Part shown: positions 53,701 to 56,700 of the stretch, in pieces
Layout of the letters: each line of letters opens with the position of its first letter
How positions within the stretch are numbered: the first letter of the stretch is position 1
Origin: Escherichia coli
Lineage (GTDB): Bacteria > Pseudomonadota > Gammaproteobacteria > Enterobacterales > Enterobacteriaceae
NCBI RefSeq assembly: GCF_051903065.1
Contig: NZ_CP178438.1
Direction: 5' to 3' (one strand)
DNA: 64,000 nt
Position numbers: made by a program

Positions 53701-56700
53701 ATCCGCACGGATGATGAGCGCACCCACCGGTACCATTACGACAGTCAGCACCGGCTGGTGCACTACACGCGGACACAATATGCAGAGCCGCTGGTCGAAA
53801 GCCGCTATCTTTACGACCCGCTGGGCCGCAGGGTGGCAAAACGGGTATGGCGACGTGAACGGGACCTGACGGGCTGGATGTCGCTGTCACGGAAACCGCA
53901 AGTGACCTGGTACGGCTGGGATGGCGACCGCCTGACCACGATACAGAACGACAGAACCCGCATCCAGACGATTTATCAGCCGGGGAGCTTCACACCACTC
54001 ATCAGAGTTGAAACTGCCACCGGTGAACTGGCCAGAACGCAGCGCCGCAGCCTGGCGGATGCCCTTCAGCAGTCCGGCGGTGAAGACGGTGGCAGTGTGG
54101 TGTTCCCGCCGGTGCTGGTGCAGATGCTCGACCGGCTGGAAAGTGAAATCCTGGCTGACCGGGTGAGTGAGGAAAGTCGCCGCTGGCTGGCATCGTGCGG
54201 CCTGACGGTGGAGCAGATGCAAAACCAGATGGACCCGGTGTACACGCCGGCGCGAAAAATCCACCTGTACCACTGCGACCATCGCGGCCTGCCGCTGGCG
54301 CTTATCAGTGCGGAAGGGGCTACAGAATGGTGCGCAGAATACGATGAATGGGGCAACCTGCTGAATGAAGAGAACCCGCAACAGCTGCAGCAGCTCATCC
54401 GCCTGCCGGGTCAGCAGTATGATGAGGAGTCCGGCCTGTATTACAATCGCCACCGCTATTATGACCCGCTGCAGGGGAGGTATATCACTCAGGATCCGAT
54501 TGGGCTGAAGGGGGGATGGAATTTTTATCAGTATCCGTTGAATCCGGTTCAGTATATAGATTCAATGGGACTGGCATCAAAATATGGACACTTAAATAAT
54601 GGCGGATATGGAGCGAGACCCAACAAACCGCCTACGCCCGATCCAAGTAAATTGCCAGACATAGCGAAACAATTAAGACTGCCATATCCTATTGACCAGG
54701 CCAGTAGTGCGCCTAATGTTTTCAAAACATTCTTCAGAGCATTAAGCCCTTACGACTACACACTGTATTGCAGGAAGTGGGTAAAACCAAATCTGACTTG
54801 TACGCCACAGGATGATCCCCAGTATCCAGGGATGGATACAAAGACAGCAAGTGATTACCTGCCACAGACAAATTGGCCAACAACTCAATTACCACCAGGA
54901 TATACTTGTGCAGAACCCTATTTATTCCCAGACATTAATAAACCCGATGGGCCAGCAACAGCAGGGATAGATGATTTGGGTGAAATTTTAGCTAAAATGA
55001 AACAGAGAACATCGAGAGGAATAAGAAAATGAAAAGAGTTTTGTTCTTTTTGCTGATGATATTTGTTAGTTTTGGTGTTATAGCTGATTGCGAAATACAA
55101 GCTAAAGATCATGATTGTTTTACTATTTTCGCTAAGGGTACTATTTTTTCCGCGTTTCCTGTCTTAAATAATAAAGCCATGTGGAAATGGTATCAGAATG
55201 AGGACATCGGTGAGTATTATTGGCAAACAGAACTGGGTACATGTAAAAATAATAAATTCACACCAAACGGGGCGAGACTCTTAATTCGCGTCGGGTCACT
55301 ACGCCTTAATGAAAATCATGCCATCAAAGGAACGTTGCAGGAGTTGATAAATACAGCAGAAAAAACGGCGTTTCTCGGCGATCGGTTTAGAAGTTATATA
55401 AGAGCGGGTATCTATCAAAAAAAGAGCAGTGATCCAGCTCAGTTGTTGGCAGTCCTTGATAATTCAATCATGGTTAAATATTTTAAAGATGAGAAGCCAA
55501 CTTATGCTCGAATGACAGCACATCTCCCGAACAAAGATGAGTCTTACGAATGTTTAACAAAAATACAGCATGAACTGCTTCGTAGTGAAGAAAAATAAAA
55601 CATCTTCCTGAGAGAATAAATTAACCATTCGGGAAAACATGTTCTTAATGGATATCCAGGTACACCAGAAGGTCGATTTGGAAAAATGGATTCCGATGGT
55701 AAGAATATCATATATTCTGAATGTAATGTTTTACCCACAACTTTTGAGATTCGATAGGTGTAGAACATGAGAAACTCACTAATATTACTTATTATGATAT
55801 TGTTTACAATATCACACTCAGTATTTGGAAAAGAAAATCCAGTGGAAATTTTAGTAAATAGTTGTGAAATGGCTTTGGAATTATCATATGTTTACATTAA
55901 ATATGTATACGGGAAAGAAAAAGCAGAATTTCAGAAACCATATAGTATTACAGATGACAATAATTGTTGGAAAATCGAGGGAAAACAACCGAAGACTTTA
56001 GGAGGAAATTTTACAATACTAATAGCGAAAAAAGATGGGCAAGTGTTGAATGTAATACACACGAAATAATCCACTGTACAGTCGATTCAAATATTTTACC
56101 AAGGTGTGTTTCGTAACAATTTTGTGTACAATATGACTCTACATATCGACGAAAAAACCACTTGATTTGACAGGAACACATTCAAAAAAATTTCTTTTTT
56201 TCATTTCAGGAGCGATTTTCATCTGTTACTTGAAGTATCTGTGAGATTAAGTGACTCCCCCTAACGTCGTACTAAATAGTAATTACTGGCCATACCGGGA
56301 GCAGTATTCGGCGCTCCCCACATGCAGCAGAATAACCGCATCAGCCAGGGAAAGATCATCAAAAGTTCACTTTTTGCACTAAATAATTCGCATTTTATGT
56401 TTAAAAATTGAGATATTCCTTATTACCTAAAGCTGTTTTTTATTGCTTATACATGATCAAATACTCCTTACATAATTAAGGAGAACAAAATGGAACTTAA
56501 AAAATTGATGGAACATATTTCTATTATCCCTGATTACAGACAAGCCTGGAAAGTGGAGCATAAATTATCGGATATTCTACTGTTGACTATTTGTGCCGTT
56601 ATTTCTGGTGCAGAAGGCTGGGAAGATATAGAGGATTTTGGGGGAACACATCTCGATTTTTTGAAGCAATATGGTGATTTTGAAAATGGTATTCCTGTCC

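Follow-up and report, generated by a model that had tools for sequence, protein, structure and literature searches.

In a 64,000-nucleotide stretch of Escherichia coli DNA (assembly GCF_051903065.1, contig NZ_CP178438.1; hereafter the window, with positions counted from its first letter), the rhsC gene and the adjacent ybfC gene are followed by a 45-codon open frame without a start codon and, 9 bp further on, by an intact open reading frame (ORF) of 100 amino acids (aa). We found that the start-less frame represents the 3' end of an Rhs toxin tip of the Tox-JAB-2 (DUF4329) family and that the ORF belongs to the Imm-NTF2-2 family of immunity genes. With moderate confidence, we read the whole segment (55617-56069) as the scar of one toxin-tip replacement, in which the toxin stub is dead and the immunity ORF likely still acts as an orphan immunity gene. 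All features described below lie on the + strand unless stated otherwise.

The start-less frame is the end of a Tox-JAB-2 toxin tip

The stub is bounded by a TAA at 55617-55619 and a TAG at 55755-55757, its 45 sense codons (55620-55754) encoding INHSGKHVLNGYPGTPEGRFGKMDSDGKNIIYSECNVLPTTFEIR. It has no usable start, the sole in-frame ATG being codon 23. The original prediction had described a start-less open frame ending 9 bp before an AT-rich, N-terminally hydrophobic 100-aa ORF, and we confirmed these coordinates, with a guanine-plus-cytosine (GC) content of 0.33-0.35 in the stub/ORF region. Overlapping ORFs in other frames (55639-55770 on the + strand and 55544-55768 on the - strand) had no support, and the frame was not found to be part of a longer gene read differently. 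A stop-free run of 45 codons has a chance probability of about 0.026 per frame at the local base composition; because such an open frame is weak evidence by itself, the case for the stub rests on homology. The stub shares its reading frame with ybfC, with two stops between them (TAA at 55596-55598 and TAA at 55617-55619), by all signs a coincidence. The stub is unannotated.

The homology was found through the neighbouring gene. A direct search of the 45-aa peptide against 5.8 billion proteins returned two short gene calls only, missing the intact tips because the peptide is too short, and it was the homologues of the window's immunity protein and their contigs that led to intact tips. In four E. 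coli contigs reached in this way (L003, L004, L006, and L007), an open rhs frame ends in SPADINYSKKHVLNGYLGTPEGRFGKMDFDGKNIIYSECNVLPTTFEIR and a stop codon, and an Imm-NTF2-2 gene for a 100-aa protein begins 9 bp further on. The stub peptide is identical at 41 of its 45 residues to the ends of the L003 tip and of the tip in the Escherichia albertii type strain (L013), and the intact tip of E. albertii CP043262.1 (L020) has one more substitution across this stretch. Window positions 55620-56345 were 93.7-94.2% identical to the E. albertii loci over 726 bp. Intact tips with this ending were found in E. coli L003 and L004 and in E. albertii L020 and L022, as expected of the displaced toxin tip that had been proposed.

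The intact L003 tip matched Pfam DUF4329 (PF14220) at E=1e-32 over model positions 3-111 of 116, and the stub by itself gave a weak match (E=0.21, model positions 87-111 of 116). The intact tip has a JAB/JAMM (MPN) fold. A barnase-like RNase tip, suggested by the TFEIR ending, was ruled out, the intact tip being DUF4329 with the JAMM fold. NCBIfam gave no match for the stub or the immunity ORF, and sequence searches of the PDB gave none for the tip or the immunity protein.

The stub corresponds to residues 116-160 of the ~160-aa tip and retains the GYLGTP motif and the tail. In the alignment of 42 Tox-JAB-2 tips, E53, G56, H97, T98, H99, G100, F111, and S112 were invariant and D115 near-invariant. 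L003 and L020 both carry the catalytic signature of the family, E ... H[ST]H ... S ... D (Zhang et al. 2012, PMC3482391). The stub does not, as it begins one codon past the last catalytic residue, D115, and lacks E53, H97, H99, S112, and D115 altogether. By its sequence, the stub is a fragment of a Tox-JAB-2/DUF4329 member and not a functional one. Lacking a start codon, catalytic residues, and any homology to the rhs core, it is dead DNA, the product of which can be neither made nor toxic.

An intact Imm-NTF2-2 gene follows the stub

The ORF (55767..56069) begins with an ATG at 55767 and ends with a stop codon at 56067-56069. The spacer between stub and ORF (GTGTAGAAC, 55758..55766) has the same length of 9 bp as in L003, L004, and L020, and a Shine-Dalgarno-like AGGTG at 55756-55760 lies 6 nt ahead of the ATG. 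The encoded protein matched Pfam Imm-NTF2-2 (PF15631) at E=2.7e-20, its residues 35-100 covering model positions 1-68 of 68, and it is named "NTF2 fold immunity protein" in RefSeq. Imm-NTF2-2 has been described as the immunity partner of Tox-JAB-2, the DUF4329 of Pfam, with a conserved Y and W (Zhang et al. 2012, Table 3, PMC3482391), in agreement with the immunity-like character first ascribed to the ORF. In the 50-sequence family alignment, Y48 and W68 were at least 90% conserved, and P58 and G72 were invariant. The AlphaFold2 model (predicted local distance difference test score, 90.3) places an N-terminal helix at residues 3-15, then a linker, then two helices against a four-stranded sheet; a Foldseek search of this model against the PDB gave nothing significant. 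A Tox-JAB-2 gene stands directly 5' of the Imm-NTF2-2 gene in L003, L004, L006, L007, L020, L022, and the rhsB-yhhH pair of strain K-12, and the partner of the window's ORF is the toxin stub only. We found no experimental paper on this toxin-immunity pair.

The N-terminus of the protein is strongly hydrophobic and resembles a Sec signal (MRNS-LILLIMILFTI-SHSVFG; leader region 55767-55830, signal-like residues 1-21). The Imm-NTF2-2-like family comprised 272 representative clusters; a comparable hydrophobic N-terminus was present in 88 of the 101 full-length representatives, a lipobox-like motif in 23, and a hydrophobic N-terminal leader also in YhhH. Because a Sec-like leader occurs in the ORF and in most family representatives, its product is probably exported.

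The ORF starts 168 nt past ybfC. No terminator-like site was predicted on the + strand in the scanned region 54800-56600, and hence none between ybfC and the ORF, and a consensus scan found promoter and terminator sites to be no commoner than in shuffled sequence, which gives no evidence either way on a promoter of its own. Since the ORF keeps its AGGTG and lies 168 nt past ybfC with no predicted terminator between them, transcription of rhsC-ybfC probably continues into it. Poole et al. (2011, PMC3150448) reported such read-through for an orphan cdiI gene. In comparison with E. albertii, the ratio of non-synonymous to synonymous substitution rates (dN/dS) was 0.17 for the ORF (8 synonymous and 6 non-synonymous changes) and 0.71 for the stub (2 and 5), values that come from tiny counts.

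The ancestral arrangement survives in Escherichia albertii

When 100,044 species representatives, one genome per species, were scanned for exact 29-mers, the only match was E. albertii, a species often reported from animal and human guts. The eight E. albertii rhsC loci read (L016-L023) sit at the orthologous chromosomal site, kdpA-kdpF-ybfA-rhs-...-ybgA-phr-dtpD. In CP043262.1 and CP117570.1, an intact 1,406-aa Rhs protein ends with the stub peptide, and past the same 9-bp gap lies a gene for a 100-aa immunity protein; the Rhs proteins of L020 and L022, both 1,406 aa, contained no internal stops. The E. albertii immunity protein is 94% identical to that of the window, and past its gene the array continues with a DUF6258 ORF and further small ORFs.

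By blastn, the window and L020 align in three blocks, namely window 49064-54545 with L020 1-5483 (92.5% identity), 55620-56345 with 5854-6578 (93.7%), and 57636-60475 with 9355-12179 (91.4%). Relative to L020, 370 bp of the old tip have been exchanged for 1,074 bp (54546-55619), and the breakpoints are the same against L013 and L020, with homology ending at 54545 and resuming at 55620. The left breakpoint is the usual core/tip boundary, 17 codons past DPIGL (residue 1221), and the right one falls inside the old tip. Microhomology at the right junction (TCCTG-like, with an 18-nt stretch aligning with K-12 and the toxin) was considered and set aside as too weak to place the crossover. The junction surroundings gave no Rfam match at E<=0.1 and contained no meaningful direct or inverted repeats.

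The ancestral order, surviving in E. albertii, was rhs core, Tox-JAB-2 metalloenzyme tip, 9-bp gap, Imm-NTF2-2 gene, and older orphan cassettes. From the end-product, we propose that an incoming piece brought core sequence, a YbfO-type tip, and the immunity gene ybfC, entering on the left by homologous recombination in the conserved core, up to the core/tip boundary at 54545, and on the right by illegitimate joining inside the old tip at 55620. The first 370 bp of the old tip, with all catalytic residues, were lost in this exchange, while its final 45 codons and the complete old immunity gene were shifted downstream. The immunity ORF, intact and with its ribosome-binding site kept, could then be read through from rhsC-ybfC, be exported via its signal-like N-terminus, and serve as orphan immunity against neighbours that still fire the toxin, which would be some E. 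albertii and rare E. coli. An intact Tox-JAB-2 tip of this type was present in E. coli GCA_021758325.1 as well as in E. albertii CP043262.1 and CP117570.1.

The E. albertii loci vary in the state of the toxin. Premature stops after 110 to 1,290 codons interrupt the main gene of L016-L019 and L023. L016, L017, and L013 have a common one-base frameshift in the tip (ending ALKKSMVYQ and a stop), which in L013 lies upstream of the stub stretch. In L021 (GCA_027566995.1), the tip is a true orphan with a core fragment of ~320 aa that includes DPIGL, preceded by an RhsC tip of K-12 type and an ORF resembling YbfB, and this orphan tip carries the same one-base frameshift. The immunity protein is identical across L016-L023, and the unchanged E. 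albertii protein was found on 136 contigs.

Distribution in E. coli and a single origin of the junction

Among the 5,426 complete E. coli genomes surveyed, the segment 55617-56069 was identified in 847, always on the chromosome, with at least 99% identity to the window across the segment in 11 of these carriers. It is 100% identical in E. coli 23CRST027 (NZ_AP045789.1). The left junction, GAGA(A/G)AATAA joined to ATTAAC, was the same in every remnant-bearing E. coli locus read, both at the rhsC locus (the window, O157:H7, BL21-AI, and O169:H41) and at the rhsB locus (nikR...yhhJ; strains 4069 and 98224), and it was also present on a metagenome contig (L008). Because the junction is the same at all of these rhsC and rhsB loci, the sequences indicate that it arose once and that the composite block was later copied between rhs loci.

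BL21-AI has four layers at this site: first a tip of K-12 type and ybfB, next the YbfO orphan and ybfC, then the stub and its immunity gene, and last DUF6258. In K-12 (L009), the junction is kept only to about 55637 and is followed by the H-repeat, the stub and immunity gene being deleted. The 44 nt between junction and H-repeat in K-12 (L009 8759-8802, from ybfC to ybfQ) gave alignments scoring below shuffled controls, and no match to the window, O157, 4069, or L003 exceeded these controls.

Alternative explanations for the retained immunity ORF

Several points weigh against the favoured reading, a tip-replacement scar with an immunity gene still at work. At the five other remnant-bearing E. 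coli loci read (four genomes and one contig), the ORF is broken differently each time. Its start ATG is changed to ACG in BL21-AI and O169:H41, the latter having additional 1-bp deletions; in O157:H7, codon 29 has turned from TTA into TAA; strain 4069 (rhsB locus) lacks 2 bp at the 3' end, which gives a 115-aa product; and IS1 is inserted after codon 4 in strain 98224. These repeated independent lesions suggest that selection on the ORF is weak or absent across E. coli. The 5' catalytic part of the tip was found by megablast in none of the 5,426 complete E. coli genomes, a distant search of which recovered the rhsB tip at ~65% identity only; E. coli itself therefore rarely poses this threat. 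Among E. albertii, too, no more than two of the seven main rhs copies scored are intact. In addition, the counts behind the dN/dS values are tiny, and the right crossover is placed only to ~20 nt, K-12 matching the window to ~55637. Lastly, whereas the sequences show the identities of stub and ORF, the two breakpoints, the ancestral order, the single origin of the junction, and the loss of the catalytic part, we infer the recombination mechanism, expression, export, and present protection from the sequences compared here, and illegitimate joining from the end-product only.

The closest competing explanation accepts the same origin and posits that nothing in the segment is functional any longer, the ORF being a neutral hitch-hiker with the YbfO-tip/ybfC cassette that happens to be unhit so far in the window. 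Besides the differing lesions at all five loci and the absence of the cognate toxin from the complete E. coli genomes, it would account for the small share of carriers close to the window (11 of 847) and for the exact window protein being found on 25 contigs versus 170 for the truncated O157 form. Moreover, the block travels as a unit between rhs loci, so linkage alone can account for its persistence. However, the ORF is intact here, Shine-Dalgarno sequence included, and its dN/dS of 0.17 against E. albertii is low, albeit from very small counts. Most lesions fall in the N-terminal leader; the Pfam domain (residues 35-100) stays open behind them and has internal starts, from which shorter products are annotated by RefSeq. 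In addition, intact toxins exist in the sister species E. albertii. We regard this neutral explanation as a serious competitor, distinctly less probable than a retained immunity function.

It was also considered whether the ORF encodes an exported envelope protein unrelated to immunity, such as a lipoprotein or a protease inhibitor of PepSY or cystatin type, with an incidental position next to the stub. The signal-like N-terminus, found in the ORF and in most full-length family representatives, and the spread of the family over 272 representative clusters of diverse sequences would suit such a protein, but the 9-bp coupling to Tox-JAB-2 recurs in the diverged pairs L003, L020, and RhsB-YhhH (38% immunity identity), comparative genomics already assigns the family as Tox-JAB-2 immunity, and an inhibitor-like fold is what would be expected of an immunity protein against a toxin with a metallopeptidase fold. 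This explanation is very unlikely. The least probable reading, refuted by the sequence, is a functional orphan toxin/immunity module from which the main rhs gene could be given another tip, in line with the reservoir that the original prediction had seen in the segment. The position downstream of the main rhs-immunity pair (rhsC 50833-55032, ybfC 55029-55598) and beside an insertion sequence (IS) element is indeed the classical orphan-module site, and in L021 the same tip, together with a core fragment, makes up a true orphan module, but the stub follows the ybfC stop after 21 nt with no rhs core and no PxxxxDPxGL motif upstream, matches its Pfam model only weakly, and consists of the last 45 of ~160 tip residues, without the catalytic E/HxH/S/D residues, and therefore could not yield an active toxin if loaded on the main gene.

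Taken together, a tip-replacement scar whose immunity gene is retained remains the reading that we favour. If functional, the ORF would be expected from its sequence to protect against Tox-JAB-2 attackers of its own specificity group.

Possible target of the toxin and implications

Several papers label DUF4329/Tox-JAB-2 an RNase, and one states that its activity and substrate remain unknown. The predicted fold of the immunity protein resembles cystatin/PepSY protease inhibitors. An exported, inhibitor-like immunity protein together with a toxin of JAMM isopeptidase fold would fit a metallopeptidase that acts in the envelope, such as in the periplasm, better than the RNase label. We tentatively suggest, as a possibility that we consider rather doubtful, that the retained ORF is a working exported shield against a toxin acting in the cell envelope. 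An exported immunity family sits badly with the RNase label, and this is the one possible, indirect lead for specialists in the segment.

On this envelope-shield reading, about 16% of complete E. coli genomes would carry an immunity gene, damaged in many of them, against a weapon now fired mainly by E. albertii. Immunity outlasts the toxin here, with stub and immunity gene in 847 of the 5,426 genomes and the catalytic part in 0. The segment also provides a base-by-base worked example of Rhs "fossil layers", with the two breakpoints located and the ancestral state preserved at the same locus of a sister species. For annotation, the block is relevant because it is present in BL21 and O157:H7 with the stub unannotated and the start calls of the damaged ORFs inconsistent (66, 75, and 90 aa in RefSeq records; 91 and 115 aa in other collections).

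Organization of the rhsC locus

The gene order of the window, kdpA-kdpF-ybfA-rhs-ybfC-[stub and immunity ORF]-ISAs1-ybgA-phrB, is that of the classical rhsC locus. Full-length rhsC (50833..55032; 1,399 aa) is annotated by RefSeq as "RHS element core protein". Its conserved core extends to ~54545, with DPIGL at residue 1221 (nt 54493), and is 92.5% identical to the E. albertii rhs up to nt 54545. The current tip (54546-55032) is of YbfO type and about 160 aa long; it is identical at 179 of 180 positions to the K-12 orphan YbfO tip, so that the same tip is the main one on RhsC here and an orphan (ybfO) in K-12. The following gene, ybfC (55029..55598; 189 aa; "protein YbfC" in RefSeq), is the presumed immunity gene of this tip and is identical to K-12 YbfC at 183 of 189 residues. 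YbfC has a hydrophobic leader of its own. The current tip and YbfC had no match in Pfam or NCBIfam and are an uncharacterised toxin-immunity pair. Together with 21 trailing nt, they make up the incoming cassette of 1,074 bp (54546..55619), as delimited by blastn against L013 and L020, after which come the toxin stub (45 codons and TAG, 55620..55757) and the immunity gene.

Past the immunity gene, a spacer from the old array (56070..56345) is homologous to L020, L013, and L002 through 56345. In O157, BL21, and E. albertii it runs on into the DUF6258 orphan cassette, which is missing in the window. The last 141 bp of the spacer (56205-56345) are richer in GC; they are absent from the intact E. 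coli locus L003 and present in O157, BL21, and E. albertii, where they lead into the DUF6258 ORF. This stretch is possibly what is left of an even older cassette.

The spacer is followed by an element of the ISAs1 family (H-repeat/ISEc1-like, named by RefSeq; 56346..57635; 1,290 bp) with a frameshifted transposase gene (ORFs 56490-57260 and 57272-57625). It closes off the array on this side and stands in place of ~2.8 kb of E. albertii sequence that contains DUF6258, two unnamed ORFs, and the 5' part of a HEAT ORF, and at its left end the window is shorter than O157:H7 by 694 bp (L002 7746-8439), including the DUF6258 ORF. The loss of both stretches at the element suggests an IS-associated adjacent deletion. 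Beyond it, an 85-aa ORF (57638..57895) encodes a fragment, the C-terminal third, of a YibA-like HEAT-repeat protein (NCBIfam NF007244; E=3.2e-24 over profile positions 202-283 of 285, with a score under the cut-off) and is homologous to the 3' part of the 150-aa HEAT ORF of E. albertii. Because YibA-type HEAT proteins come after the rhsA and rhsB tips in K-12, the 85-aa ORF looks like a further truncated orphan immunity-type gene, cut by the IS element.

Comparison with known systems

Every element described here is already of a known kind, whether the tip replacement, the orphan immunity gene with a 3' effector stub, or the Tox-JAB-2/Imm-NTF2-2 pairing, and the stub and ORF are an ordinary, well-understood leftover of toxin-tip swapping. 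One of the closest known systems is the Rhs orphan module (Poole et al. 2011, PMC3150448; Koskiniemi et al. 2014), of which K-12 ybfO-ybfC is an example at the same locus. Like such modules, the segment lies downstream of a full-length rhs-immunity pair and beside an H-repeat/ISAs1 element, and it consists of a start-less toxin fragment, homologous to full-length Rhs tips elsewhere, followed by a cognate immunity ORF that looks expressible. However, functional orphan modules keep a piece of core with the DPxGL (or VENN) motif and the whole toxin domain (Poole et al. 2011, PMC3150448) and are thus reloadable, whereas the stub of the window has 45 codons and neither feature. The module of E. albertii L021 is, in contrast to the stub, what a reservoir copy looks like.

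The orphan immunity arrays of the Vibrio cholerae type VI secretion system (T6SS) resemble the segment in that a new pair has come in and the old immunity gene has been shifted downstream with the 3' end of its effector gene, a process for which homology-facilitated illegitimate recombination has been proposed (Kirchberger et al. 2017, PMC5361080). As in those arrays, the left junction lies in conserved sequence, the right one is non-homologous, and intermediates occur in related genomes, here the ancestral L020, the orphan behind a K-12-type tip in L021, the four-layer stack of BL21-AI, and the deletion in K-12. Unlike in the auxiliary T6SS clusters of V. cholerae, the carrier is an Rhs protein and the flanks examined contained no T6SS or vgrG gene, and the composite block of the window, unlike those arrays, has spread by copying between the rhsC and rhsB loci.

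The RhsB-YhhH and RhsD-YbbC pairs of K-12 (Zhang et al. 2012, PMC3482391) belong to the same toxin and immunity families and have the hydrophobic immunity leader. RhsB-YhhH differs in representing another specificity group, with immunity proteins 38% identical and tip DNA ~65% identical to those described here, and in the K-12 RhsB toxin being complete. The RhsC-type PAAR-Rhs proteins of E. albertii with a Tox-JAB-2 tip correspond to the segment in their orthologous locus, in a nucleotide identity of 92-94% on both sides, and in the same 9-bp gap; there, however, the toxin is whole within a protein of 1,406 aa, whereas in the window 370 bp of it have been replaced by the YbfO-type tip and ybfC.

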